A DNA stretch of 64,000 nt, taken from Planctomycetaceae bacterium (GTDB lineage Bacteria > Planctomycetota > Phycisphaerae > Phycisphaerales > UBA5793). How positions within the stretch are numbered: the stretch's first letter is position 1; each line of letters begins with the position of its first letter. The stretch is from assembly GCA_040255465.1 (NCBI GenBank), contig JBDZVA010000002.1:932375-996374 (forward strand), in the 5' to 3' direction. Positions 34,633-61,372 of this stretch are shown here, one piece after another. The notes under the pieces are model-generated. The model was not told the DNA's origin. It did not search any database and saw nothing but the letters and a program-made list of their open reading frames with translations. The position numbers were made by a program, and so were the translations under genes.

Positions 34633-35541
34633 ATGAAGATTGCGCCCATTGCCTTCACCGCTACGCTGCTGTGCGCCTCGGCCGCTCTCAGCCAAGTCCC
34701 GATCTACGAGCAACCAATCTTCAACACCGGCGGCACCTTGCGCGCCACCCAATTGTGGCAGGATCCATCGGGCCAGAATGACTCCGATCTCGACGCCATC
34801 GCCTGGGAGGACTTCAAGTTGACGCAAGACGCGACTCTCACGCGCGTGAACTGGGTCGGCGACCCGGCTCCGTCGCTGGGATTTCGGATCGGATTCTGGC
34901 TCCAGGACCCGAACACAATCTCGCTTCAACCTGATCTCTTTGCCGGCCCATTTGATGAGCACGACTATCCAAGCGTCTCGCAAACGGCGATCGGCAACGG
35001 GCTGTACCGCATCGAAGTGCAGCTCGCTCGGCCGCAATCGCTTCTGGCGGATACGCAGTACTTCATCACCGTCATCGGACTCACGCCCCAGCCATTCAAC
35101 CAGTGGCGCTGGGCCCAGGCGATCGGGCCAAACACCGGCACGTTTTACTGGCAGCGAGCCGATGGCGGGCGCTACAGCCGCCTCGGGGAAGACCGAGTCA
35201 TGACCCTGTTCGGCCAGATCATGGCGCCCGCACTGACCATATCACCTGATCCGCTCATTGCCGGACAGAACGGCACATTCACGATTGACAACATGACGCC
35301 CTCGACCCGCGCCTATCTCGTCTACAGCCTTCGCGGCCCCGGCAGCACGCGCGTCAATCAACTCAATGTCACGCTTGATCTCGCCCAGCCCGCGCAGGCG
35401 GGCAGCCCGAAGACGACCAACGGCAACGGCCACGCGGTGTGGAATCTGCCCATCCCCATCAACGGACGCGGCCGCAACATCTGGTTCCAGGCGGCGCAGT
35501 ATGGCATGAAAACCAACGTCTTGGCAACGCGCATGAACTAA
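34633..35541 (+). CDS. Secreted hypothetical protein
   Basis: ATG at 34633 inside ORF 34108..35541. Signal peptide MKIAPIAFTATLLCASAALSQ. Beta-rich sequence with no recognisable catalytic motif. Confidence 0.6.
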   Translation: MKIAPIAFTATLLCASAALSQVPIYEQPIFNTGGTLRATQLWQDPSGQNDSDLDAIAWEDFKLTQDATLTRVNWVGDPAPSLGFRIGFWLQDPNTISLQPDLFAGPFDEHDYPSVSQTAIGNGLYRIEVQLARPQSLLADTQYFITVIGLTPQPFNQWRWAQAIGPNTGTFYWQRADGGRYSRLGEDRVMTLFGQIMAPALTISPDPLIAGQNGTFTIDNMTPSTRAYLVYSLRGPGSTRVNQLNVTLDLAQPAQAGSPKTTNGNGHAVWNLPIPINGRGRNIWFQAAQYGMKTNVLATRMN

Positions 35542-43216: not shown

Positions 43217-44284
43217 GTGGATGAAATGACCAAGTCTCTCGCGTACCTCGCACCAACTCTGGCGATCAGTGCCGCATGCCTCGTCGCGATCGGTGGCTGC
43301 TCGCGCGATACGCAACCCACCGAGACGATCGCGACCATGGCGGAACTGCCGGAGGGGATTCGAGCGTCCGTCGTCGCTTCTCCCGAACTGAAACTGGGCT
43401 TTGCCGTCTATTCCCGCAACTGCGTCGGCTGTCACGGGATCAAGGGCGACGGAGCCGGACCGGCCGCCGTTCGCCTGATCATTCAGCCGCGCAACTTCAC
43501 GACTGGCGAGTTCAAGTTTCGCTCGACTCCCAACGGTCAACTTCCGCTTGACGAAGACCTCCACCGCACCATTCGCCAGGGACTCAAGGGCAGCTCAATG
43601 CCCGCCTTCCAGTTCATGCCCGAGCGCGAGCGCAATGCGGTGATCGCCTTCATCAAGCAGTATTCCCCGAAATGGACTGACAAGGGGCAGAAGCGAGACC
43701 GCGTGATTCTGCCCAGTTCCGCGCCCGACAACCTGCTCACCGAAGAGCGGGTCTGGAAGGGTCGCTTTGCCTACATCGGCATGGGCTGCCACAACTGCCA
43801 CGGCATGACCGGGCGCGGCGACGGTCCAAGTGCCTACGCGCTGCATGATGATTGGGGCAACCCCGTGCGCCCCTACAACTACCATCGCGGCGCGCCCAAG
43901 GGCGGGTCGACTCCTCTCGACATCTACCGCACCTTCCGCACTGGCGTGACGCCCATGCCCAACTACCAGTCAAGCACGCTGGGGCTGGTGACACGGGACC
44001 TCAAACCCACGGTCTTCAACCTGCTCGTCGAACAGGAACAGAAGCTCATCGAGCCCTACGTCGACTCGCTCGCCACCATGGAAGAGGTGATGAAATGGCA
44101 GGAACAATCGCCGGAACGCTACGAGGCGTACAGCGATGACCGCGCCTGGGATCTCGTCGCCTACACCCTCTGGCTCCGCGAACAAAGCAAGCCCGTTGGC
44201 GAACGCAGCGCCGCTATCTGGCCCCATCACCCGGAATCCGAAGCGAGCACATCGGCTGACACGCCGCCATCTACAGGCAACTGA
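43217..44284 (+). CDS. Diheme c-type cytochrome, probable lipoprotein
   Basis: Lipobox-like VAIGGC after the signal sequence. Two CxxCH sites (CVGCHG, CHNCHG). Immediately upstream of ccoN. Confidence 0.75.
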   Translation: MDEMTKSLAYLAPTLAISAACLVAIGGCSRDTQPTETIATMAELPEGIRASVVASPELKLGFAVYSRNCVGCHGIKGDGAGPAAVRLIIQPRNFTTGEFKFRSTPNGQLPLDEDLHRTIRQGLKGSSMPAFQFMPERERNAVIAFIKQYSPKWTDKGQKRDRVILPSSAPDNLLTEERVWKGRFAYIGMGCHNCHGMTGRGDGPSAYALHDDWGNPVRPYNYHRGAPKGGSTPLDIYRTFRTGVTPMPNYQSSTLGLVTRDLKPTVFNLLVEQEQKLIEPYVDSLATMEEVMKWQEQSPERYEAYSDDRAWDLVAYTLWLREQSKPVGERSAAIWPHHPESEASTSADTPPSTGN

Positions 44285-44329
44285 TTCTTCCGCGACACTT
44301 GCATCGCCCCTGACGGAAAGCATGCACTC

Positions 44330-45787
44330 ATGACTCAGACAGTTACGACCCCACTCATTCGACCCACCGTCGTCACCAGTCGCGGCGAAACTCGCGTCCT
44401 GGTTGACACGACTGCGTGCAAACTCCACTTCATCGCCGCGGTAAGTTGGATCGGCGTCGGCATCGTCGCCGGCCTGCTCTACTCGTTCGTCTTCCTTCGC
44501 CTCTACCCGCATGAAGGCGTCGAAGTGCTCAGCCCCGGCCGCATTCGCATGATCCACACCAACCTCATGGCGTATGGGTTTCTGACCAACGCGTTTATTG
44601 CCATGCTGCATTGGGTCGTGCCGCGACTCACGGGCGAGCCGGTTCTCAGTCACCCGCTTTCCAAGGTGATTTTCCTTGCCTGGAACGTGATCGTTGGCGC
44701 GGCGGTCTGGGGCATCCTGACCGGGCAGGCCCAGGCGATTGAGTGGGGCGAAACGCCTTTCTGGGCCGATCACCTTGTCGTCTTCGGCGTGGCTCTCGTC
44801 GTCATCAACTTCACGTGGTCGATCATCCGTTCGCGCGAGAAGTCGATGTACGTCTCGCTCTGGTACTTCACCGCCGCATTCGTCTGGACGCCGCTGGTCT
44901 ACATCATGGGCAACTACCTGCCCCAGACGCTTGTGCCCGGCACCGGCGGCGCGGCCCTCGTCGGCCTCTACATCCACGACCTCGTCGGCCTGTTCGTCAC
45001 GCCGATGGGCTGGGGCTTGATGTACTTCTTCGTTCCCGTCATCTCCCGCAAACCGATCTACTCACACGCCATCAGCCTCGTCGGTTTCTGGGGGCTGGCG
45101 TTCTTTTACCCGCTCAATGGCGTGCACCATTTCCTGTGGTCGCCCATTCCGATGTTCGCGCAGTACGGCGCCGTCATCTCCACCATCGCCGTGGAAGTCG
45201 TCGTCACCACCGTCGTGATCAACTTCGTCATGACGATGCGCGGCGAGTGGTATCGCCTCAAGGAGACGATCGCGCTGCGCTGGTTCATGGTCGGCATGAC
45301 CTGCTACTTCATCACCTGCTTCCAGTGCGCCTTCCAAACCACGCTGACCATGCAGAAGGTCATTCACTTCACCGACTGGGTCGTGGGCCACTCGCACCTG
45401 GTCATGTTCGGCGTCTTCTCCTTCTGGATTGCTGGCGTGATCGAACATCTCTGGCCCAAACTCACCGGCCGCAACTGGTGGTCGCGCCGCCTCAACCTCT
45501 GGCACTTCTGGCTTTGGACGCTTGGCGTGGCGCTGATGTTCACCGACCTTACCGTCATCGGTGTTATTCAGGGCCTCGTGTGGGACAGCCTCCGTCCGTG
45601 GGAAGAGTCCATCCGCTATTCGGAAATCGGCTGGTTTATCCGCATGATCACCGGCTGGATGATCCTCGGCGGGTTCCTCTGCCTGGCGCTCAACATGTTC
45701 ATGACTTTCATGGCACGCGAGGATCACACCGACACCGAGTACGCCGGCCAGTTCCCCGAAACCTCGGCCGCAGGAGCGAGGGCGTAA
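44330..45787 (+). CDS. ccoN: cbb3-type cytochrome c oxidase subunit I
   Basis: Twelve or more TM helices. Heme-copper blocks HWVVPRLTG, GLYIHDLVGLFVTPMGWG and HFTDWVVGHSHLVMFG. Confidence 0.85.
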   Translation: MTQTVTTPLIRPTVVTSRGETRVLVDTTACKLHFIAAVSWIGVGIVAGLLYSFVFLRLYPHEGVEVLSPGRIRMIHTNLMAYGFLTNAFIAMLHWVVPRLTGEPVLSHPLSKVIFLAWNVIVGAAVWGILTGQAQAIEWGETPFWADHLVVFGVALVVINFTWSIIRSREKSMYVSLWYFTAAFVWTPLVYIMGNYLPQTLVPGTGGAALVGLYIHDLVGLFVTPMGWGLMYFFVPVISRKPIYSHAISLVGFWGLAFFYPLNGVHHFLWSPIPMFAQYGAVISTIAVEVVVTTVVINFVMTMRGEWYRLKETIALRWFMVGMTCYFITCFQCAFQTTLTMQKVIHFTDWVVGHSHLVMFGVFSFWIAGVIEHLWPKLTGRNWWSRRLNLWHFWLWTLGVALMFTDLTVIGVIQGLVWDSLRPWEESIRYSEIGWFIRMITGWMILGGFLCLALNMFMTFMAREDHTDTEYAGQFPETSAAGARA

Positions 45788-46564
45788 ATGGAAAGATTCA
45801 ATTTCATCTTCGTGGTTGCAGGCATCGGCTTCTTCGCGCTGGCGTTCGTCATCATGGGCGCTCTGCCGCTGGCGCAGTATCAGGGTGTGGATGTCGTGAG
45901 CATGGCGCAAATCGCCACCAACATCCCCTATCAGTTTGAAGAGCTGGCCCGCGACTATCCCGACGCTTTTCAAAGAGCATTTGGCACGACCGAGCCCACC
46001 GCCGCCGCCTTCGAAGACGCCCTTGAGACGGGTCGTCAGGCCTACATCGCCGAAGCCTGCTGGCACTGCCACACTCAGCAGATTCGTCGCATCGATCCCA
46101 ACGACGGCACCGAAGTCGGCCACGACATCAGCCGCTGGGCGTCCGACACGCATCAGGAATCGCAGGCCGATGAGTACCACAATGCGATGAACTACCCGCA
46201 CCTGTTTGGCACCCGCCGCGTGGGACCAGATCTGATTCGCAGTTCGGGTCGACACAGTAACGACTGGCATCTCGCGCACCTGTGGAATCCGCGGCAGACA
46301 TCGCCCTATTCCGTCATGCCGCCATACACGTGGTTTTTTGACGACGCTGAAGGCAAGGTGCCCAACAAGCGCGGCCTCGGGATTGTGACCTACCTCCAGT
46401 GGCTTGGATGCTGGTACACGCAGTTCGCTCCATCTGAGTACAAAGACCTGCCGCAATTGCCCGTCGACGAAGCCTGGTATCCGCCGTACGTCCCGCCCAA
46501 GGATGAGCCGACGGAAGAAGGCGGTGACGACCCCTACGGCTCGAGCGAGGAGGATCCTTACTAA
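45788..46564 (+). CDS. ccoO: cbb3-type cytochrome c oxidase monoheme subunit II
   Basis: ATG directly after the ccoN stop. N-terminal TM helix, CWHCHTQQIR heme site, GPDL and MPPY blocks typical of CcoO/FixO. Confidence 0.8.
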   Translation: MERFNFIFVVAGIGFFALAFVIMGALPLAQYQGVDVVSMAQIATNIPYQFEELARDYPDAFQRAFGTTEPTAAAFEDALETGRQAYIAEACWHCHTQQIRRIDPNDGTEVGHDISRWASDTHQESQADEYHNAMNYPHLFGTRRVGPDLIRSSGRHSNDWHLAHLWNPRQTSPYSVMPPYTWFFDDAEGKVPNKRGLGIVTYLQWLGCWYTQFAPSEYKDLPQLPVDEAWYPPYVPPKDEPTEEGGDDPYGSSEEDPY

Positions 46565-46899
46565 TGCGCACGGACCACCCTGAAAACCCGCCGACTTCAC
46601 GAGCTCAGCCGCGCAGCGGCAAGAACCCGCTGTGGGTCTGGATCTTCCTCTGGTCGATCACGGTGCTCGCCGGCGCCGGTTTCATCTTCAAACTTGTTGA
46701 GTTCACGCTCGCCTGGGCCCGCGGCGGCGCCGGGTCCTTCGCGATCGTGCCCGTCGTCTCGTATCTGGCAGTCGCAGGTGGATTCCTCTGCATCTTCATC
46801 TGGTCTTTCAACCGCGGCGAGTACAACGATGTCGAGCGTGCCAAGTACCGCATGCTCGAGATGCAGGATGAGATTGATGCGCGAGGAGGCCGCGCATGA
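46564..46899 (+). CDS. Small two-TM membrane protein in the cbb3 cluster
   Basis: ATG at 46564, 2 nt after the ccoO stop codon (46562-46564). Two hydrophobic helices (LWVWIFLWSITVLAGAGFIF, VPVVSYLAVAGGFLCIFIW). Confidence 0.55.
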   Translation: MRTDHPENPPTSRAQPRSGKNPLWVWIFLWSITVLAGAGFIFKLVEFTLAWARGGAGSFAIVPVVSYLAVAGGFLCIFIWSFNRGEYNDVERAKYRMLEMQDEIDARGGRA

Positions 46900-47036
46900 G
46901 GATGTTCCGTCGCCACGCCGCGCACACCTACGAGGGCTACCACTTTCCGTGGTTTCTCACGCTGTTCTGGATCACCTTCTTCTCTGCGGCGGTGATCTAC
47001 CTGGTCCGATTCCTCTTGCTGAGTGGACCAAACTGA
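46896..47036 (+). CDS. 46-aa single-TM micro-protein (CcoQ-like position); not in the ORF track
   Basis: Hand translation: ATG 46896 (ATGA overlap with the upstream stop) to TGA 47034-47036 gives MRMFRRHAAHTYEGYHFPWFLTLFWITFFSAAVIYLVRFLLLSGPN. It is below the 60-aa track cutoff. Confidence 0.45.
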   Translation: MRMFRRHAAHTYEGYHFPWFLTLFWITFFSAAVIYLVRFLLLSGPN

Positions 47037-47122
47037 TTCACAGGCCGGATGCCGAGGTCCAGGCGGAGTCAATCACTGCGAGGGCCACGCGTCGCGCAAT
47101 AGGGCGTCGAGAAAGACCAGGC

Positions 47123-49324
47123 ATGACTACGCCGCCTGACAATTCGAGCAGTGCGAGGGCCGCCCCATCATGCGCTCACTGCAGTCTGCCTGTGGCGCCC
47201 ACGCTGCTTCGTCGTGTTCACGATGCCGCGCGCAACAACGAACCGCTGTTCTGCTGCGGCGGCTGTCGGCTTGTCCACTCACTTCTCGCCACTCGTCAGG
47301 CAGATCACACCATCAGTTCGGCCATGCTCCGCATCGGCCTGGGCATCTTCTTCAGCATGAACCTGATGGTCTTTTCCTTTTGCTTTTACGGAGCTGATAC
47401 GCTTGTCCCGCCGGGGGGCGCGACGTCCGCCGACATGGCGCTCGCCAATCTGTTCCGCTGGCTGCTGCTCCTGCTCGCGTCCGGTGTCATGCTCACGCTT
47501 TGGACGCAAATCGCGCGTGGCGCCTGGGATGATCTGCGCCGCGGCCGACTGCAGGCCGGAGTACTGATTGCGACCGGAGCACTCGCCGCGTTCATCGTCA
47601 GCGCCATTTCGGTCCTGCGAGGCGAGGGCCCCCTCTACTTCGACTCCGCCTCGATGATTCTGCTGCTTGTGACCATCGGCCAGTATCTTGAAGCCAAGAT
47701 GAAGACCGCGGCGGTCCGCAGCGCGGAAGGCCGACTGCTCAGCCTTCCGGACGAGGTTACGATTGAGTCGGCAGTTGGCGATCAGACCGTCAATGTATCG
47801 GAGGTGCAGACGGGTCAGACCGCGCGCGTTGCAGCCGGAAGTGCGATCCCCATCGATGGGGCGATCGTGCGCGGCCACGCCACCATCGATGTCTCACTGC
47901 TCACCGGTGAATCTGAGCCGCGACAGTGCGGCCCCGGGGCCAACGTGTGGGCCGGCTCACACGTGCTCGACGGCGTCATCTGGATTCGCGCAACATCGAC
48001 GTCTTCGGAGCGCCGCATCGAGACCATCGTGCGACAACTTCACGCCCTGCGCAACGAGCCGACACACATTCAACGCCTCACGGACCGCATCGCCGCTGTC
48101 TTCATACCCGCAACCATCGTGCTTTCGCTCGCCGTCTTTGCATACCAGGCGATCGTGTACGGCGCCGCCATGGAAGGTGTCATGCGCGCGCTGGCCGTCG
48201 CCCTCATCGCCTGCCCGTGCGCGCTGGGCCTGACGGCGCCCCTCGTTGTCTCGCGCGTTGCGTCATCGCTCGCGCGGCACGGCATCATTGTCCGCAGTGG
48301 ACGCGCACTCGAACTCGCAGCGTCGGTCCGCCACATCTTTTTCGACAAGACCGGCACGCTCACGACCGGCGACTTCCGCGTGCAGCGCACCATCCGCATC
48401 GATCCGTGCTGCGATCCTGATCCGATAGCCGCAGCACTCGAGCAAGCCTCGAATCACCCCATCGCGCGGGCCTGGTCCAAGGTGGCGTCCGCTTCACTGC
48501 CCTCGGTTTCGGATCTCGAACCCATCATTGGCCTCGGCGTTCGCGGCTTCATTGACGGCCAGAGGTACTTCATCGGCCGCGCCAGCGTAACCTCCGCGGT
48601 GCGAACCACATCCCTGCAACCGCCGATCGAACTGGCGGACCTGCTCCCCATAATGCTCACGCGCGACGATCAACTTGTTGCCTGGTTCGGCCTCACTGAA
48701 TCAATCCGCCCGGAGTCCACTGTCGTATTACGTGATCTGCACTCCATGCACATTCGCGCCGAAGTCCTGACCGGCGACGTGTCGCAGCGTGCGGTTCAGC
48801 TCGGTGAGGCGCTCGGCGTGCAGGTTCACAGTGCCCAGACGCCCGAGTCGAAGCGCACAATGATCCGGCAGCGTCGCGACGAGTCCAACACCCCGGTAGC
48901 ATTCGTAGGCGATGGCATCAATGACGCGCTCGCTCTGGCCGAAGCCGATCTCGGCATCACCGTCGCTGGCGGCAGCGATCTCGCCCACGCTTCCGGACAG
49001 GTCAGTCTGCTCGATGGTGATCTGCATCGACTCGTTCACCTGCTGCAGGCAGCCCGCATCGCGCAACGCCGCATCGCGCTTGCGCTGGGTTGGTCGTTCG
49101 GCTACAACGCTGTGGGACTTACGCTTGCAACGCTGGGCATGCTCACGCCCGCCTTTGCCGCAATCGCGATGGTACTGTCCAGCGCGGTCACCATCATCAT
49201 TGCTTCGCGCCCCGTTTCTACTGGCTCGCTTGAAACCGCAGATCCCACCCGTTCTCCACTTGCGCTCTCACGTCGGGCCCCATCGTCCAGAGGTCTTCCC
49301 GTTCCCGCGGCTCCCCCGGCATGA
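47123..49324 (+). CDS. ccoI: Copper-translocating P1B-type ATPase (CcoI/FixI-like)
   Basis: ATG at 47123 inside ORF 46694..49324. N-terminal CAHC and FCCGGC metal sites, a CPC TM motif (IACPCALGL), DKTGTLT and GDGINDA. Confidence 0.8.
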   Translation: MTTPPDNSSSARAAPSCAHCSLPVAPTLLRRVHDAARNNEPLFCCGGCRLVHSLLATRQADHTISSAMLRIGLGIFFSMNLMVFSFCFYGADTLVPPGGATSADMALANLFRWLLLLLASGVMLTLWTQIARGAWDDLRRGRLQAGVLIATGALAAFIVSAISVLRGEGPLYFDSASMILLLVTIGQYLEAKMKTAAVRSAEGRLLSLPDEVTIESAVGDQTVNVSEVQTGQTARVAAGSAIPIDGAIVRGHATIDVSLLTGESEPRQCGPGANVWAGSHVLDGVIWIRATSTSSERRIETIVRQLHALRNEPTHIQRLTDRIAAVFIPATIVLSLAVFAYQAIVYGAAMEGVMRALAVALIACPCALGLTAPLVVSRVASSLARHGIIVRSGRALELAASVRHIFFDKTGTLTTGDFRVQRTIRIDPCCDPDPIAAALEQASNHPIARAWSKVASASLPSVSDLEPIIGLGVRGFIDGQRYFIGRASVTSAVRTTSLQPPIELADLLPIMLTRDDQLVAWFGLTESIRPESTVVLRDLHSMHIRAEVLTGDVSQRAVQLGEALGVQVHSAQTPESKRTMIRQRRDESNTPVAFVGDGINDALALAEADLGITVAGGSDLAHASGQVSLLDGDLHRLVHLLQAARIAQRRIALALGWSFGYNAVGLTLATLGMLTPAFAAIAMVLSSAVTIIIASRPVSTGSLETADPTRSPLALSRRAPSSRGLPVPAAPPA

Positions 49325-50124
49325 CGCTCCTACTGACCTATCTCGGGTTCTTCCTCGCGGGCCTGGCGGGAAGCCTGCACTGCATTGGCATGTGTGGCCC
49401 CATTCTTACCGCCATCGCCGGCGTCGATCGCCGCGCTGAGGTAACCCTCAACGGCCAATCCGTGTCCCAGCGTGCAAACAGAGCCGCTCGCGACCTGCTG
49501 TGGTATCATGCCGGCCGCATCAGCACCTACGCCATGCTCGGCGCGCTGGCAGGTGCTTTGGGTGCGACGATCCGCGAAGCGATTTGGCTTGGGCAACTTC
49601 AGGGTTGGCTGGGCTTCGCGACAGGACTCATCGCCTTCTTCGTCGCCGGCATCCTGCTCCTCAGACCAGTCACGAGTTGTTCAAACGCGCTCGAGCTGAC
49701 ACCTCGCAATCGCTCTCTTGCCGGCACCTTTGCACTTCTTCGCTCGCTCGCTCAGCAGAAATCGCCATCATCGCGATTCCTTCTCGGCGCGATCATGGGC
49801 TTCATACCCTGCGGCCTCGTCTACATCATGCTCGCTGCGGTCGCCGCAACCGGTCATCCGCTCGCCGCTTCGCTCGGCATGATTGCCTTCGGCCTCGGCA
49901 CACTCCCCGCGCTGACCGGCGTCATCCTCGCCGTGCGACTGGTCCCAATTCGATGGCGCAAGCACGGCAACCGCGCCGCCATGCTCATGGCTCTTGTTGT
50001 CGGTTCGATGTTCTTGTGGAGGTCGTGGCCTACTCACGCCCATGGTGCCGCAGCGCTCGATCAGCACAACTGTCCGCTGTGCAATGACGCTGCATCGGAA
50101 CCATCGAACCACACACGCCCGTGA
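49321..50124 (+). CDS. TauE/SafE- or DsbD_2-like membrane protein coupled to ccoI
   Basis: ATGA overlap with ccoI. Six or so TM helices and an N-terminal GSLHCIGMCGP motif. Confidence 0.65.
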   Translation: MTLLLTYLGFFLAGLAGSLHCIGMCGPILTAIAGVDRRAEVTLNGQSVSQRANRAARDLLWYHAGRISTYAMLGALAGALGATIREAIWLGQLQGWLGFATGLIAFFVAGILLLRPVTSCSNALELTPRNRSLAGTFALLRSLAQQKSPSSRFLLGAIMGFIPCGLVYIMLAAVAATGHPLAASLGMIAFGLGTLPALTGVILAVRLVPIRWRKHGNRAAMLMALVVGSMFLWRSWPTHAHGAAALDQHNCPLCNDAASEPSNHTRP

Positions 50125-50446
50125 CGGGCCGCCTCCGTTCCGCGCCCACTAGAGCATCAACGAAGCAGGCGCAATCCGTGATCTCTGCGTATCGCGCCAC
50201 CCCAAGCGATCGGTCACGCGCACTCCGTGTTGGCACCGCTGCTGGGGATCGCACTTGCGCGCCAATGGCGTCAATTTTCACCACTTGCTTCAACGACCGG
50301 GGCAGTTTCCCTCATCTCGATTGCTCCATGCATGTTTTTATTGACCACATTTGGTTTATCAGTTAGGTTGAAGTGACGGCGCAGCGAATCGAGCGAGCAC
50401 GCTTGAGGCTGATCGACCGACACACATCCTTCACAAGGAGATGGGA

Positions 50447-51364
50447 ATGACTTCTACACGACTCCGTAGCCACTTTTGTCTGTTCTGCCTGCTTCTTTTC
50501 GCCGTTGTGGCAACACCGGCCATGGCCTTTCCGGATCTGGCAACCGGTACCAATGGCGACTGCTTCGCCTGCCACACCACCATTCAAACCGGCCGCATGG
50601 AACTGCTTGATTTTGCGGGCATGATTGACCCCGTCGAAATGCAGGGCGTACCCGATCAGGGTTCGCTCAAGTACTACTCCGTCGCGCCGGGCGGCAGTGT
50701 GGGCATGACGATTCACGCGATCAACGGGGCCAACCAATACGCCTTCCAGGTCACTGGCTTTGACGCACCCGACGTCACCGGCGGTGGCACACTCACCTAC
50801 ACCGATGATCCCGCATGGCTCGCATACCGCGGGAACTTCAAGACCTACTTCTGCCGTGCCGACGGCGGTCGGAACGGCTACGACTGGGGAACCGGGGATC
50901 CCACGACCGTCACGTACAACATCCAAGTCGATCAGTCAACCCCGCCCGGATACTACCTGCTTCGGTATGCGCTGGCGGGCAAGGGTGGCGGCGAGTGGTA
51001 TCAGGATGAGCTGTTCTACCTCGAAGTCACCGGTGGTTCGGGCGGACCGGTGCTCACGGTCAACGCGACCTGCCCAAGCGGCGGGCCGATCATGATCTCG
51101 TGGTCCGGCGCGACGCCGCGCTCCACCATCGCGCTCATCTACGCGCGGAACACCGGCAGCTTCCGGATCCCGTCCAACTACGCCTGCGCCGGCACCGTCC
51201 TGGGACTCGGCTCCAACCAGGTCCAACTGGCCTACCAGGGGGCATCCGGCACCAATGGCAGCAAGACACTGAATTCGAACGCCGGGCCCGGAGTCTGCGG
51301 AGGCTACTTCCAGTTGCTCGACGTCGCCACCTGCTCGACGAGTAATGTCGTTCAGGCCCAGTGA
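50447..51364 (+). CDS. Secreted CxxCH protein, paralog 1, with 4-Cys C-terminal module
   Basis: ATG at 50447 lies 6 nt after AAGGAG. Signal peptide ...VVATPAMA, then NGDCFACHTT about 10 residues after the predicted cleavage site. C-terminal LTVNATCPSGG...CAGT...CGGYFQLL...CSTSN. Confidence 0.7.
   Translation: MTSTRLRSHFCLFCLLLFAVVATPAMAFPDLATGTNGDCFACHTTIQTGRMELLDFAGMIDPVEMQGVPDQGSLKYYSVAPGGSVGMTIHAINGANQYAFQVTGFDAPDVTGGGTLTYTDDPAWLAYRGNFKTYFCRADGGRNGYDWGTGDPTTVTYNIQVDQSTPPGYYLLRYALAGKGGGEWYQDELFYLEVTGGSGGPVLTVNATCPSGGPIMISWSGATPRSTIALIYARNTGSFRIPSNYACAGTVLGLGSNQVQLAYQGASGTNGSKTLNSNAGPGVCGGYFQLLDVATCSTSNVVQAQ
51011..51324 (+). repeat. 314-bp perfect direct repeat, copy 1
   Basis: I read nt 51011-51324 as identical to 52196-52509 (offset 1185). 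The first mismatch is at 51325 (C) versus 52510 (T). Confidence 0.85.
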
Positions 51365-51459: not shown

Positions 51460-51625
51460 CACTCATCCGCGCCGCTCAAGCTACCGCGATTTCTTCTCCT
51501 TCTTGACGGGATCATGCAAGATTTTTCGGCCCGGCTCGCGATTGTGAGGTACTCTTCAATACCGGTGCCGCACACGCGGATGGACCGTCTGCTGTAGTAC
51601 CGACTCGATGCACCAGGAGAGAGAC

Positions 51626-52549
51626 ATGCCCCCCTCGCGATTTTCTATCGGACTCATCGCCGTCGCCCTGTTCGTCCTCGGGACGCTCGCAGGCCGAGCG
51701 GTCGCCTATCCCGCATTCGGGGAGGGCGTGGACGGCAACTGCTTCGTCTGCCACTCGACCATCGTCGACAACCGGATGGAGCTGCTCGATTTTGCCGGCA
51801 TGATCGACCCCGTCGAGATGCAGGGCGTTCCGGACCAGGGCTCGCTCAAGTACTACTCAGCGCCGGCAGGCGGCAACGTCGGTATGAGCATGCGCGCCAT
51901 CGACGGCACCGAGAACTATGCCTTCCAGATCATCGGGTTCAGCGAGCCCGACGTGACACAGGGCGGCACGCTCCTCTATTCTGCCGACCCCACGTGGTTG
52001 TCCTTTCAAGGCCCCACGCAGACCTATTTCGTTCGTGCCGACGGCGAGTTCGATGGCTACGACTGGCTCACCAACGATCCCACTGAGGTTACGTACGACA
52101 TCCACGTCGATGCCTCAACACCCCCCGGCTACTACCTGCTCCAGTTCGCGCTTGTCGGGCGCGATGTCCAGCGCGATGGCTGGTACCACAGCGAACTGTT
52201 CTACCTCGAAGTCACCGGTGGTTCGGGCGGACCGGTGCTCACGGTCAACGCGACCTGCCCAAGCGGCGGGCCGATCATGATCTCGTGGTCCGGCGCGACG
52301 CCGCGCTCCACCATCGCGCTCATCTACGCGCGGAACACCGGCAGCTTCCGGATCCCGTCCAACTACGCCTGCGCCGGCACCGTCCTGGGACTCGGCTCCA
52401 ACCAGGTCCAACTGGCCTACCAGGGGGCATCCGGCACCAATGGCAGCAAGACACTGAATTCGAACGCCGGGCCCGGAGTCTGCGGAGGCTACTTCCAGTT
52501 GCTCGACGTTGCCACCTGCTCGACGAGCAACGTCGTTCGAGCGGAGTAA
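51626..52549 (+). CDS. Secreted CxxCH protein, paralog 2, with 4-Cys C-terminal module
   Basis: ATG at 51626 in ORF 51608..52549. Signal peptide ...LAGRAVA, then DGNCFVCHST at the same position as in paralog 1. The C-terminal ~105 aa are identical to paralog 1. Confidence 0.7.
   Translation: MPPSRFSIGLIAVALFVLGTLAGRAVAYPAFGEGVDGNCFVCHSTIVDNRMELLDFAGMIDPVEMQGVPDQGSLKYYSAPAGGNVGMSMRAIDGTENYAFQIIGFSEPDVTQGGTLLYSADPTWLSFQGPTQTYFVRADGEFDGYDWLTNDPTEVTYDIHVDASTPPGYYLLQFALVGRDVQRDGWYHSELFYLEVTGGSGGPVLTVNATCPSGGPIMISWSGATPRSTIALIYARNTGSFRIPSNYACAGTVLGLGSNQVQLAYQGASGTNGSKTLNSNAGPGVCGGYFQLLDVATCSTSNVVRAE
52196..52509 (+). repeat. 314-bp perfect direct repeat, copy 2
   Basis: See copy 1 (51011-51324). 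Confidence 0.85.
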
Positions 52550-53428: not shown

Positions 53429-53941
53429 TTGAGAGTCCGGTGGCGGTGTTTATGCTTGCTCGTGCCAACGTCTTCCAATCAGTCTGGCTCGCGGGACAAC
53501 GAACGGCTCGAAGCGGGGTCGACCTGCGCAAAGTGCGGGTGCAATCTTGCCAGCCGGGCGCCGCATGGGCAATGTCCGGAGTGCGGAACCACCTACGAGC
53601 GATGGACGGTGGCGCGGCGGGGGCCGGTGTCGGCGCTGGGGCTGCTCGTGCGGTTTGGGTGGCCGTTCATGGTGTTTGCTGTCGTCATGTACGCCGTCAA
53701 TGGCGGCATAGCGATCCCCAGTGGGCTGGGTAGACTAAGCGGATGGATTGCCGTGGCATCCGGTGCGGCGCTGTTCATCAACATCCCCGTGCAGTTCATT
53801 TGGTTGCATTACAGGGGGGCGCCGTACTTCATTGACGTTTCGCCCGGCCGGGTTGTGTGGCGGTTCGTCATCTGCATCGTGCTGTTGTTCTTGTTACTGC
53901 CATTCCTGCTTCTGGGAGCGTGCCTGCTTCTGGTGCTCTGA
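53429..53941 (+). CDS. Zinc-ribbon membrane protein, paralog 1 (N-terminal CxxC...CPEC, three TM helices)
   Basis: CAKCGCNLASRAPHGQCPECGTTY followed by LLVRFGWPFMVFAVV and two further helices. Start uncertain (TTG at 53429). Confidence 0.6.
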   Translation: MRVRWRCLCLLVPTSSNQSGSRDNERLEAGSTCAKCGCNLASRAPHGQCPECGTTYERWTVARRGPVSALGLLVRFGWPFMVFAVVMYAVNGGIAIPSGLGRLSGWIAVASGAALFINIPVQFIWLHYRGAPYFIDVSPGRVVWRFVICIVLLFLLLPFLLLGACLLLVL

Positions 53942-54024: not shown

Positions 54025-54498
54025 TTGTGCGTGGAAACGACTCCTGGACAGACTGCGGCCACGGCGAGGCTCGGCGAGCAGGCGTATTGCGTGAAGTGCG
54101 GATATCAGCTCTCGGGACTTTCAGCGAGCGGAGCGTGCCCGGAGTGCGGCAACGCCTATCAACCTACAACCGTGGCTCGCGAGCCGGCGCCGATGACGAT
54201 GAATCTACTGCTGCGGTTCGGCTGGCCAATGGTGGCGTACCTGCTGTTCACGGTAGTGCCGATGACCGGCGCGGGTGATGGCAATTTCGTCCTGCCGTTG
54301 TCGCTGGTGCTGCTTGCGGCTTCGTTCCTGGCGTGCATCGTCAATGTGCCGATTCAGTTTCGGCTGCTGAGAGGCCGCTCCGTTGGACCGCGCGCCGATC
54401 AGGTGCGCCGCTTAATGGTGACGCTCGCAGTGCTGTCTATTCTCTGGCCGTTTCTCATCTTCGGCGGCTGCCTGGCTGTGGTGGCGACGCTGGCGTGA
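54025..54498 (+). CDS. Zinc-ribbon membrane protein, paralog 2
   Basis: CVKCGYQLSGLSASGACPECGNAY followed by LLLRFGWPMVAYLLF and two further helices. Collinear with the 53429 product. Confidence 0.6.
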   Translation: MCVETTPGQTAATARLGEQAYCVKCGYQLSGLSASGACPECGNAYQPTTVAREPAPMTMNLLLRFGWPMVAYLLFTVVPMTGAGDGNFVLPLSLVLLAASFLACIVNVPIQFRLLRGRSVGPRADQVRRLMVTLAVLSILWPFLIFGGCLAVVATLA

Positions 54499-55910
54499 GC
54501 GTGCCGCTTTCCATCCTGAATGCACCGTCACCGCTCAAGGTCACGCGGAGCCGATGTCCGGTGTGCCTCGACGAGATTGACGCGGAAATCTTCACGCGGG
54601 GCAACAGGGTCTACATGAGCAAGCGATGTATTGCGCACGGCGCGTTTGAGACGCTGTTGGCGCGGGATGCGAGGTTCTACTATGAATCGAAGGGCGCCGG
54701 GTCGTGCGGGGCAGGTTGTGGGTGCGCCGCGGGAAGCGACGGCGGCCACGGCTTCGGATTGCGCGGGGACGATGGAGGCGTCGACGTAGACCCCTTTGAC
54801 GTGCTTTCGACGTGCGTGGCGCTCATAGAGATTGTGGATTCGTGCAACCTGACCTGCCCGACGTGTTTTGCGGCATCGCCCTTCGGAGTCGATGAGCGTG
54901 TCGAGTGCCTGCCGTTCGATGAGTTCGTCAGGTGCGTCGAGAAGGTGTTGACGCGCAAGGGGTATGTCGACATTTTGCAACTGTCAGGCGGGGAACCGAC
55001 GATTCACCCGGAGTTCTTCAAGTTGCTCGAGTGGTCGCTCAAGCAAAGCACAATCGGCTACGTGCTCATCAACACCAATGGCGTGCGGGTGGCGCGCGAT
55101 GCAGCGTTTCGGGAAGAGTTGGGGCGAGTGCGGCGGAAGCACAAGAAGTTCGAGTTGTATCTGCAGTTTGACGGGCCGCAGGAGGCGGGGCAGTTTGAAT
55201 TGCGCGGAGCGAATCTGCGGGCGCTGCGCGAACAGGCGATCGACCTGGCTGGTGGGGCAGGCATACCAACGACGCTGGGGATGGTCGTGACAGAGCAGAC
55301 GCGCGCGGCGCTGGGTGATGCGTTGCGATTCGGACTGGAGCGGCCGCACTGTCGAGGCTTGACGCTGCAGCCGATGTTCGGCTCCGGGCGCGTGCCCGAG
55401 GTGCAGACGTCTCTGCCGATGGCGCGGGAAATGCGCGAGCCGATCTCGGTTGGTGATGTGATTGCCGATCTGGTGGCGCAGAGTGACGGGCAGTTGGCGT
55501 TCGAGGACTTCACCCCTCTGCCGTGCGGCGATCCGAACTGCCACACGATGAGTTACCTCATTCGTAGCGAGAACGGGTCCACCGGCTTGAGCCGGCTGAT
55601 CGACTTGAGGTCGCTACAGGGATTCCTCGCGAACCGACTCGACTATCGGCTGGAGGATCTGGCGCAATGCGGCTGCGAGAGTGAGCCACTTGGCGCGGTG
55701 CTCAAGGAGTTGGAGATCGGACCCGATCAGCCGTTTCGGATCTTCATCAAGCCGTTTATGGACGCGTGGACATTCGACCAGGACCGGATCGATCGGTGTT
55801 GCACCCACGTCATCCGGCGCGACGGAACGCTGGACTCGTTCTGCCGGTACTACCTGAACGGCGGCCGCGCGGGTGAGATAGCGCGGGCATCTCAGAGCGC
55901 TGCGCGATGA
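54495..55910 (+). CDS. Radical SAM enzyme of the MJ0619 / Tes (GDGT-MAS)-like family
   Basis: GTG at 54495 (GTGA overlap with the upstream stop) in ORF 54333..55910. N-terminal CPVCLDEIDAEIFTRGNRVYMSKRCIAHG, radical SAM CNLTCPTC (CxxxCxxC), SGGEPT. C-terminal FIKPFMDAWTFDQDRIDRCCTHVIRRDGTLDSFCRYY, resembling the MJ0619-type C-terminus. Confidence 0.65.
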   Translation: MSVPLSILNAPSPLKVTRSRCPVCLDEIDAEIFTRGNRVYMSKRCIAHGAFETLLARDARFYYESKGAGSCGAGCGCAAGSDGGHGFGLRGDDGGVDVDPFDVLSTCVALIEIVDSCNLTCPTCFAASPFGVDERVECLPFDEFVRCVEKVLTRKGYVDILQLSGGEPTIHPEFFKLLEWSLKQSTIGYVLINTNGVRVARDAAFREELGRVRRKHKKFELYLQFDGPQEAGQFELRGANLRALREQAIDLAGGAGIPTTLGMVVTEQTRAALGDALRFGLERPHCRGLTLQPMFGSGRVPEVQTSLPMAREMREPISVGDVIADLVAQSDGQLAFEDFTPLPCGDPNCHTMSYLIRSENGSTGLSRLIDLRSLQGFLANRLDYRLEDLAQCGCESEPLGAVLKELEIGPDQPFRIFIKPFMDAWTFDQDRIDRCCTHVIRRDGTLDSFCRYYLNGGRAGEIARASQSAAR

Positions 55911-56641
55911 CTCTAGGCAGCGCGTATAGCGTGCTGATGATTACGGGGATTGTTCTGGGCGCGTGGCTGTGGAGTCGCATCACGGGACAGCAGACGCGGC
56001 GTGATCCGCGGTTGACGATCATCTACCTCTCGGCACTCGTCGGCGCCATCGTCGGCACCAAGGTCGCGTTTCTGCTGGCCGAGGGCTGGCACTATCGCGA
56101 TAACTGGGTTGCGCTGCTGACGGGACGGAGCATCACGGGCGGACTGCTCGGCGGATACGCCGCGGTCGAGATTGCGAAGTGGCGTACGGGCTATAGGCAG
56201 GCAACCGGTGATGCGTTTGCACTGATTGTGCCGACCGGGTTGGTGCTCGGGCGCGTGGGCTGCTGGATCCAGGGGTGCTGCCAGGGGGCGCTGTGCGCTG
56301 AGCACTGGTGGTCGCTCAATGACAGCGTGGGGGCAGGTCGGTGGCCGATTGTGCCGCTGGAGATCGGGTTCAACGCGGCGTTTCTCATTTGGGCGCTGGC
56401 CGCGCGACGGTTGGGGTGGGTGCGCGGCAACCAGTTTCACGTGTATCTCATCGCGTACGGCGTCTTTCGATTCGTCGAAGAGTTTGCGCGCGACACAGCG
56501 AGGATTGATGGAACATCCTTCAGCGGATACCAGGTGATCGCGCTGGCAACCATAGTGTTCGGAGCAGAGCGGTTTGTGGGGCGCAGGTTTGTGGGGCGCA
56601 CTAAGCAGGCGCTTCGTGAAGAAGCGCCTGCGATGAAGTAA
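55907..56641 (+). CDS. lgt: Prolipoprotein diacylglyceryl transferase (Lgt) family protein
   Basis: ATGA overlap with the radical SAM gene. Polytopic membrane protein with GGLLGGYAAVEIAKW and LGRVGCWIQGCCQG (an Lgt GRxGC..GCC.G-type block). Confidence 0.6.
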   Translation: MTLGSAYSVLMITGIVLGAWLWSRITGQQTRRDPRLTIIYLSALVGAIVGTKVAFLLAEGWHYRDNWVALLTGRSITGGLLGGYAAVEIAKWRTGYRQATGDAFALIVPTGLVLGRVGCWIQGCCQGALCAEHWWSLNDSVGAGRWPIVPLEIGFNAAFLIWALAARRLGWVRGNQFHVYLIAYGVFRFVEEFARDTARIDGTSFSGYQVIALATIVFGAERFVGRRFVGRTKQALREEAPAMK

Positions 56642-60140: not shown

Positions 60141-61187
60141 CTACGGGATCTGGTCCGTGTTGCTGACCGCGCATGATCCCAAGGTAATGAGCTGGAGGTA
60201 TCCGCCGCACGCCCCGGTACCGGCGCGACCGTTGACCGAGCCGGCGCCTCCGCCGGTGCCGATGGTATTGACGAGCTGAATGTTTCCCTGAAGTCCGAGG
60301 ACCGTTCCCGCGCACGGGCCGCCGGGAATGTTGGTGCTGCCTTCACGACTGCCAAAGACGATGCCCTGCTGCCGACCGGGCTCAGCGCCGCTCCAGGAGA
60401 CGCTCACCGAGCCGGGGCACGCGCCGCCGACCGTGAGGCGATACCCCCCTCCGCCCCCGGCGACGTATTCGAGCGCGTTGGCCATCAGGATGTCGCCGTC
60501 GGTCGTCTGATCCCACCACGTGCTGGAAACGGCACTCGAGGGTGGGTAGAAGCCGATATCGGCGCGGTTGGGAAGCGCACCGGCCACGGTGAGCGGCTTG
60601 CCATCACTCCATTGCGCGACAAGTGTGGAGCCGGGCGCGAGGGAAGTCGTCGTCGGCCGGAACCCGCTTGAGCCCCCGATGAAGGTGGATACACCCTGGA
60701 TGAGCGGGTGATTCGGGTCGAGAATCGTGCCCAGCGATGCGTTGCCCGACGAGGTGCCGCCGCGCGGGACGATGACGTCGTAATCGGGCGACCAGCGGCC
60801 GGTGAGGTAGCGGTTGTTCGTGGTGGTCGTATTACCGAACACGGCGATAACCACGCCGCCGCCCGCGTCGACGTAGTCGGCGAGGACATTGCCCAAGGCG
60901 GCGCTGTCAAGGTAGTTCAGATTCGACCAGACGATGACGGCGTCGTACTGCTGGAGGGTTTGAAGCGTCGGCGTCACCACACCGGCGTCGATGATATCGA
61001 CGACGTTGAAGCGGCCGGTGCCAACCAGTTTGTCGCGCGGATCAGTAAAGCGGGCGTCTCCCGATCCGCTGCCGGCAGCCGCGACGATGGCCACATCCGT
61101 GGCGAGCGCGGCATTGGCGGCGAGCAGGCTGCCCGCAACGACTGCGATCAAACCCATCGTGTAACGGCGATCACGGTTGGTTTTCAT
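60141..61187 (-). CDS. Secreted protein: flavodoxin/GATase1-like N-terminal region plus 4-Cys C-terminal module
   Basis: ATG at 61187 in ORF 60141..61244. Signal peptide ...LLAANAALA. C-terminal LTVGGACPGSVSVSWSGA...CAGTVLGL...CGGYLQLI...CAVSN is homologous to the tails of the 50447 and 51626 products. Confidence 0.65.
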   Translation of the reverse strand: MKTNRDRRYTMGLIAVVAGSLLAANAALATDVAIVAAAGSGSGDARFTDPRDKLVGTGRFNVVDIIDAGVVTPTLQTLQQYDAVIVWSNLNYLDSAALGNVLADYVDAGGGVVIAVFGNTTTTNNRYLTGRWSPDYDVIVPRGGTSSGNASLGTILDPNHPLIQGVSTFIGGSSGFRPTTTSLAPGSTLVAQWSDGKPLTVAGALPNRADIGFYPPSSAVSSTWWDQTTDGDILMANALEYVAGGGGGYRLTVGGACPGSVSVSWSGAEPGRQQGIVFGSREGSTNIPGGPCAGTVLGLQGNIQLVNTIGTGGGAGSVNGRAGTGACGGYLQLITLGSCAVSNTDQIP

Positions 61188-61372
61188 CTCTCTTCTCTCC
61201 TGTGGTTTTCTCACCAAGACATGCGGCTTTGCTGACCAGATCAATCAGGCAATGACAGCCCCGCGGGGAAACGACCGGGGGTCGACCCGTCAGGATAACG
61301 GGTTTGGCATTGCATTGCAATGGAATAGCCACTACATCTCGTTGATCACGGAGTCCAAGGACCAGACCCAAA

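Follow-up and report, generated by a model that had tools for sequence, protein, structure and literature searches.

Three genes in the window, which is the whole stretch of 64,000 nucleotides that was analysed, encode proteins with a common type of C-terminal tail. These genes are called A, B and C in the following (Table 1). Their products open with Sec-type signal peptides, which were read by eye from the sequence; all three have a basic n-region, a hydrophobic core and an AxA site (AMA/FP in A, AVA/YP in B and ALA/TD in C, the slash marking the cleavage site). The tail of ~105-110 aa, hereafter the module, contains four Cys residues and is preceded by a Gly-rich linker, which reads TGGSGG or GGGGG. 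In module copy 1 the four Cys are at aa 211, 249, 286 and 298 of gene A. The probable start of gene B is Met7 at nt 51626. For gene C the Met at 61187 is the most likely real start, since a protein in the databases (P0163) is 100% identical over 348 aa from there.

Table 1. Positions of the module genes and of other features in the window.
Feature	Coordinates	Strand	Description
Gene A	50441-51364	+	307 aa, from the ORF list; signal peptide ..ATPAMA/FP, CxxCH at aa 41-45, beta-rich passenger, Gly-rich linker TGGSGG, C-terminal four-Cys module
CxxCH of gene A	50561-50575		
Module copy 1	~51032-51361	+	gene A aa 198-307; long-loop subtype
Gene B	51608-52549	+	313 aa from first ATG; tandem paralog of gene A, same domain order
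CxxCH of gene B	51740-51754		
Module copy 2	~52217-52546	+	gene B aa 204-313
Identical tract	51011-51324 (gene A) = 52196-52509 (gene B)	+	314 nt, 100% identical; longest exact match
Gene C	60141-61187	-	348 aa from MKTNRD...; full ORF 60141-61244; signal peptide ..ANAALA/TD, ThuA/GATase1-like passenger, GGGGG linker, C-terminal module
Module copy 3	60144-60458	-	C-terminal 105 aa of gene C; subtype with short loop, end ..SNTDQIP
Genes directly upstream of A/B	43217-50124		cytochrome c, ccoN, ccoO, CcoI-like P-type ATPase, DsbD_2/CcdA-like genes
Small zinc-ribbon genes	53429-53941 and 54025-54498	+	adjacent paralogs
Radical SAM gene	54333-56641	+	HMPTM-type N-terminal zinc ribbon (PF23545 + PF04055)
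34633 gene	34633-35541	+	product with Cys-free tail

Genes A and B are tandem paralogs with an overall protein identity of 73%. Their modules have the same protein sequence apart from the final 3 residues. At the DNA level the identical tract spans the linker plus the module minus its last ~12 codons; upstream of it, about half to three quarters of the aligned positions match between the two genes (60-column alignment blocks). The complete identity of these 314 nt, next to upstream DNA that has diverged, indicates a recent gene-conversion tract, which is confined to linker and module. The passenger of gene B is 75% identical to that of the single-copy ortholog P0156, the passenger of gene A 69%. 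The earlier note on this DNA had described the domains upstream of the three tails as unrelated. This is true for gene C, which differs from A and B, but not for A and B themselves, which are tandem paralogs with a gene-converted module. The window therefore contains two independent module architectures and not three.

The product of gene A has no match in Pfam-A or NCBIfam, and the word-indexed protein search returned a single homolog of the passenger. An AlphaFold2 model of full-length gene A, which was based on 3 sequences, reached a pLDDT of 41.6.

Sequence and predicted structure of the module family

The similarity of the three tails, which the earlier note had claimed from the letters, is well supported. 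Tail A aligns with protein C with 44% identity over 108 aa (E=3e-20), and an HMM built from 2 sequences and run against the six-frame translation of the window recovered exactly three copies, with E values from 1e-61 to 1e-51; the next best hit had E>1. Outside the window the family is large. An exhaustive profile search of 1.84 billion cluster representatives gave 1,882 sequences at E<=1e-3, and 861 of these reached E<=1e-10. The word-indexed protein search with the module found 7 relatives and badly underestimates the family in comparison with the exhaustive search.

No family of Pfam-A or NCBIfam covers the module. Pfam-A and NCBIfam gave no match to it in the proteins of the window at E<=1 or in 30 isolated modules at E<=10. 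A profile search of the PDB sequences returned noise only (E>=0.044). The profile search proposed in the earlier note was highly significant and placed the module behind many unrelated passenger domains. The view that it is a portable, unnamed C-terminal unit on exported proteins agrees with these results, i.e. with the many unrelated passengers and with the lack of a sequence match in Pfam, NCBIfam or PDB. The module is a candidate for a new Pfam/NCBIfam family.

The consensus sequence of the module is ..L.V.G.CPG...V.WSGATP..Q.AL.FA.NTGSF.IP.GPCAGT.LGLG....QLV.....G..GSG.....AG..ACGGYLQL.D...C.TSNVAQIP. The four Cys are invariant in alignments of 9 and of 125 sequences, and in the latter the same holds for several Gly; losses are rare among the genomic copies (L033). 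Nearly invariant in the 125-sequence alignment are also P68, W75 and residues of the TSNV region. Two subtypes can be distinguished by a rule on the spacing between Cys and Trp; hierarchical clustering was uninformative in this respect. The long-loop subtype, to which genes A and B belong, has the motif CPxGGP, a Cys-to-Trp spacing of 10 and usually the end ..R[IV]E. The short-loop subtype, represented by gene C, has CPG, a spacing of 8 and the end ..Q[ILV]P. Both subtypes occur together within single genomes, as they do in the window.

The structure of the module was predicted with AlphaFold2 from the 9-sequence alignment. The best model has a pLDDT of 90 and a pTM of 0.82, and 2 of the 5 models were confident. 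The model contains nine beta-strands and zero helices, which form a beta-sandwich. A beta-sandwich, one of the folds for which the earlier note had suggested a structure prediction, is hence what the model predicts. A Foldseek search against the PDB gave a best E of 0.02 and TM-scores of 0.45-0.62, with zero matches at E<=0.001. The matches include nanobodies, neocarzinostatin, FN3-like domains and the Nir2 C-terminal domain. These Ig-like and neocarzinostatin-like sandwiches are all-beta and of similar size, and apo-neocarzinostatin has two disulfides. The likeness is at the level of the fold only; the predicted resemblance to Ig-like sandwiches denotes a fold class and not a family assignment.

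In the numbering of the module, C14 is located in the beta1-beta2 loop and C52 in the highly conserved beta4-beta5 loop, and C89 and C101 lie on either side of the beta8-beta9 hairpin. A single natural variant (L033) has lost C1 and C2 and kept C3 and C4. Because C1 and C2 were lost together, this one case suggests a disulfide pairing of C1-C2 and C3-C4. The invariant Cys and the confidently predicted beta-sandwich would fit an extracytoplasmic domain.

Position, passengers and hosts of the module

The module is strictly C-terminal. It ends 0-4 residues from the C-terminus in 155 of 155 database proteins, and 0-4 codons before the stop codon in 94 of 95 genomic copies from 68 loci. The sole exception is a copy (L062 5821-6705) that is followed by 137 further residues before the stop; it could stem from gene fusion, from read-through or from faulty assembly. 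Each protein carries essentially one copy. Signal peptides were detected with a crude test in 129 of the 155 family members.

The proteins are 98 to 1,260 aa long and their passengers are diverse. Pfam families among the latter include FG-GAP, Kelch and SBBP propellers, I-set Ig domains, DUF4394, subtilases of the Peptidase_S8 family, beta-helix and C-type lectin domains. On the NCBIfam side there are HAF repeat, delta-60 repeat, choice-of-anchor Q, DNRLRE and DVUA0089 family proteins, and four of these (HAF repeat, choice-of-anchor Q, DNRLRE and DVUA0089) also occur in other anchor systems. Glycoside hydrolases and lyases are absent from the 25 partner families that are most frequent.

In one case the passenger may have been separated from its module. 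P0006 (155 aa; L002 6887-8468) overlaps an upstream ORF of 385 aa and starts with a subtilase-like end, GYGRVNLNAAMH. This region is probably a frameshifted or mis-called single gene for a protease plus module. A Peptidase_S8 gene is located just upstream of it (L002 3839-6412).

The hosts were examined with a genome scan that used two peptide patterns from the 2-sequence alignment, so that the copy numbers and the taxonomic range are minima. Genomic loci with the module came from Planctomycetota MAGs in 66 of 66 cases, and these are mostly labelled Phycisphaerales or Phycisphaerae. Single MAGs contain many copies (at least 19, 14, 12 and 10 in four of them). The WYBR01 MAG, 'Vicinamibacteraceae bacterium isolate PLA1', has at least 19 module genes (e.g. 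L006, L012, L018 and L063), like the Phycisphaerales MAGs; its Vicinamibacteraceae label is probably wrong.

Most module genes are dispersed singletons. A recurrent neighbour gene that might encode a partner, for instance a receptor, a sortase or a translocon, was not found, the best candidate being present at 7 of the 68 loci. Tandem arrays occur as well: one contains four small genes, each of which encodes a signal peptide and the four-Cys module only (L034 5815-7536); in another array of four, three genes encode signal peptide plus module and the fourth bears a passenger (L063 4636-7282). In tandem pairs of paralogs the amino acid identities of module and passenger are 59/36, 65/39, 72/55, 61/37 and 68/50%. 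In neighbouring paralog pairs, evolution is hence slower in the module than in its passengers.

The module as a probable alternative C-terminal anchor

The passenger of gene C matches PF06283 with E=7e-5, which is under the gathering score of this family, and many of its homologs carry a precomputed PF06283 match. Both results fit the guess in the earlier note that this passenger is GATase1-like. The word-indexed search identified 170 homologs of the passenger, and the endings were counted in the 120 that are listed. The GC-type dockerin NF041540 is present on 67 of these 120 homologs. PEP-CTERM (TIGR02595) occurs on at least 12, and further PEP-CTERM subfamilies also match. Five of the 120 end with the four-Cys module (P0163, P0164, P0197, P0205 and P0021), and a few have other C-terminal domains without family assignment. 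On one orthologous passenger family the module alternates with established anchors.

The term 'choice-of-anchor' describes passengers of this kind, i.e. surface proteins with alternative C-terminal anchors (bioRxiv 10.1101/2023.03.06.531300). The alternation of GC-type dockerin, PEP-CTERM and module on the gene C passenger therefore indicates that the module fills the anchor slot. This result favours surface attachment or sorting over carbohydrate binding. It also means that the exchange of anchors can be studied on one passenger family. Tails of the PEP-CTERM or GC-dockerin type were not found in the window by a regex scan. Likewise, the dockerin_GC and PEP-CTERM families are absent from the 25 listed of the 41 NCBIfam families that match 125 module proteins.

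Four homologs of the gene C passenger (P0177, P0201, P0264 and P0265) have in common another C-terminal domain without family assignment, which ends with ..G.(T/S)W.FQ.WFRD....NF(S/T)DG. This tail domain is a further alternative for the anchor slot.

The known C-terminal anchors resemble the module in several respects. The GC-type dockerin is found in the same lineage, in the same extreme C-terminal slot and on orthologs of the same ThuA-like passenger, and it also has conserved Cys. It is, however, a tandem repeat of the Asp-rich dockerin/EF-hand-like type that ends with Gly-Cys, whereas the module is predicted to be a beta-sandwich of ~105 aa; NF041540 had zero matches on the window proteins or on 30 modules. 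PEP-CTERM (TIGR02595, PF07589) is likewise an alternative ending of the gene C passenger family and is present on many paralogous substrates per genome with diverse passengers. It consists of a motif of ~25 aa, a transmembrane helix and a basic, Arg-rich tail. The module, in contrast, would be a globular domain of 105 aa without a hydrophobic helix, and neither the PEP motif nor a transmembrane helix nor a profile match was detected in the window proteins and the 30 modules.

A further parallel concerns the C-terminal domains (CTDs) of substrates of type IX secretion (T9SS) (type A, TIGR04183/PF18962; type B, TIGR04131). These are obligate C-terminal Ig-like beta-sandwiches of ~70-100 aa on Sec-exported proteins with diverse passengers, and they occur in dozens of copies per genome. 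The module is, by its predicted fold, also a beta-sandwich at the extreme C-terminus of Sec-exported proteins, and its two subtypes recall the types A and B. Yet the four invariant Cys are a feature of the module that is foreign to T9SS CTDs. There was no match to Por_Secre_tail/T9SS families at E<=10 in the 30 modules or in the window proteins, and T9SS CTD structures are missing among the 50 Foldseek matches listed. The hosts are Planctomycetota, from which T9SS is not known. Families of carbohydrate-binding modules (CBMs) or lectins in Pfam did not match at E<=10 either, and the 25 most frequent partners are free of glycoside hydrolases and lyases. A search of the literature on the GC-type dockerin or on C-terminal sorting domains of Phycisphaerae/Planctomycetes found nothing relevant. 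The module is best regarded as a new family among the C-terminal surface anchor/sorting domains, which as a functional kind are already known.

We consider it reasonably likely that the module is a lineage-specific C-terminal domain for cell-surface sorting or anchoring, which has so far been found, in the scan with two peptide patterns, only in Phycisphaerales-type Planctomycetota. The reasons are the choice-of-anchor pattern, the strict terminal position, the single copy per protein, the diversity of passengers, the lineage-specific expansion and the slow evolution. Module proteins would be exported by Sec via their N-terminal signal peptides. The last ~105 residues would fold outside the cytoplasm into the predicted 9-strand Ig-like beta-sandwich, and two disulfides, probably C1-C2 and C3-C4, would stabilise it. 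The module could then attach, by non-covalent docking, to a surface component of the cell itself, or it could be the handle for a surface-targeting or outer-membrane export machinery. Either route would result in the display of the variable N-terminal passenger at the cell surface, for instance of a beta-propeller, an Ig domain, a subtilase, a lectin, or the ThuA-like or CxxCH domain. We slightly prefer non-covalent docking to an export tag because stand-alone genes for signal peptide plus module exist. Their tandem arrays (L034, L063) are odd for a pure export tag and fit an intrinsic function in binding or assembly.

A more far-reaching form of this interpretation, to which we give only a small chance, has two variants. 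The module could be the recognition signal of a new sorting or outer-membrane secretion pathway of Phycisphaerales, a counterpart of the T9SS CTD with the subtypes ..R[IV]E and ..Q[ILV]P and with dozens of substrates per genome; or it could be the unit from which a new surface structure assembles by itself, with passengers grafted onto it. To our knowledge the cell envelope of Planctomycetes, and especially that of Phycisphaerae, is unusual and poorly understood, and protein display and secretion in these bacteria are almost wholly uncharted. If the module is a sorting/anchoring domain, it offers a handle for computing the surface proteome of abundant marine and sediment bacteria and a bait for the cognate receptor or sorting machinery.

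Other functions have to be considered for a domain with these properties. The module could bind an external substrate, as a lectin-/CBM-like ligand-binding domain or as an adhesion domain, and take no part in the sorting of the protein to the envelope of the cell itself. A small beta-sandwich with stabilising disulfides, as predicted here, would be suitable for this purpose, and the strongly conserved loop IPxGPCAGTxLGLG is a candidate binding site; stand-alone secreted copies in tandem arrays are also seen for some lectins. The searches, however, gave zero matches to CBM or lectin families at the permissive threshold of E<=10, and the listed partners lack the glycoside hydrolases and lyases. 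A strict terminal position with one copy per protein is moreover atypical of CBMs, and the swap of the module with PEP-CTERM and the GC-type dockerin on the same passenger speaks against a ligand-binding domain. Overall, this explanation is rather unlikely.

The same tandem arrays, with 3-4 stand-alone genes and in one case a passenger-bearing gene at the array end, can be understood if the module associates with itself as the subunit of a polymer or lattice at the surface. The stand-alone copies would then be the body and the fusions with passengers the display subunits, formally like the two-domain tip adhesins and pilins of chaperone-usher pili. The Ig-like fold, the conserved Cys and the conserved last strand ..C.TSNV.Q[ILV]P would agree with such a role. 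The predicted model, however, is a complete 9-strand sandwich without a missing strand or a donor extension. Genes for chaperone-, usher- or sortase-like proteins do not recur nearby, and most module genes are dispersed singletons, which makes self-association improbable. Still another explanation is a passive structural role without a targeting function, in which the module is a stabilising cap, a spacer or an intramolecular chaperone like the pre-peptidase C-terminal (PPC) domains of proteases. Subtilases are indeed among the partners and generic Ig-like domains are common spacers. But spacers are usually internal and repeated, whereas the module is single and terminal; it is also better conserved than the passengers and is exchanged with bona fide anchors. 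Since PPC (PF04151) is unmatched as well, we regard a passive role as very improbable. The interpretation as a sorting or anchoring domain thus remains the preferred one.

Gene neighbourhood of A and B, and the 34633 tail

Genes A and B are situated next to genes for a cbb3 oxidase (Table 1), and a peroxiredoxin gene follows downstream. The order DsbD_2 - module gene - peroxiredoxin - citrate synthase - rhomboid is kept on a related metagenomic contig (L069). This contig has one copy only of the A/B gene. In both A and B the CxxCH motif is ~10 residues past the cleavage site of the signal peptide, and it is kept in P0156. Cytochrome families did not match the products of the two genes. The motif raises the possibility that A and B encode envelope-displayed monoheme proteins. 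The module in turn suggests envelope display of a conserved CxxCH protein that is encoded beside cbb3 oxidase genes.

Further downstream there are two adjacent paralogous small genes. Their products have an N-terminal zinc ribbon of the type C.KCG...CPECG, which is followed by transmembrane segments, and share the motif LL.RFGWP. The radical SAM gene has a 4-nt overlap with a gene for an Lgt-like (PF01790) membrane protein. This is an unusual pairing.

The earlier note had also asked, with reservation, whether the tail of the 34633 product is related to the module. This relation did not hold: BLASTP gave E=0.71, the HMM E>1 and hhalign a probability of 0.9%. The product has a weak match to choice-of-anchor R (NF041539, E=0.017), which is under the cut-off. 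Its Cys-free tail shows a weak similarity to the C-terminal ends of P0262 and P0254 (BLASTP E=0.033), and these are another alternative ending of the ThuA-like passenger. The 34633 tail may represent a further unnamed anchor family.
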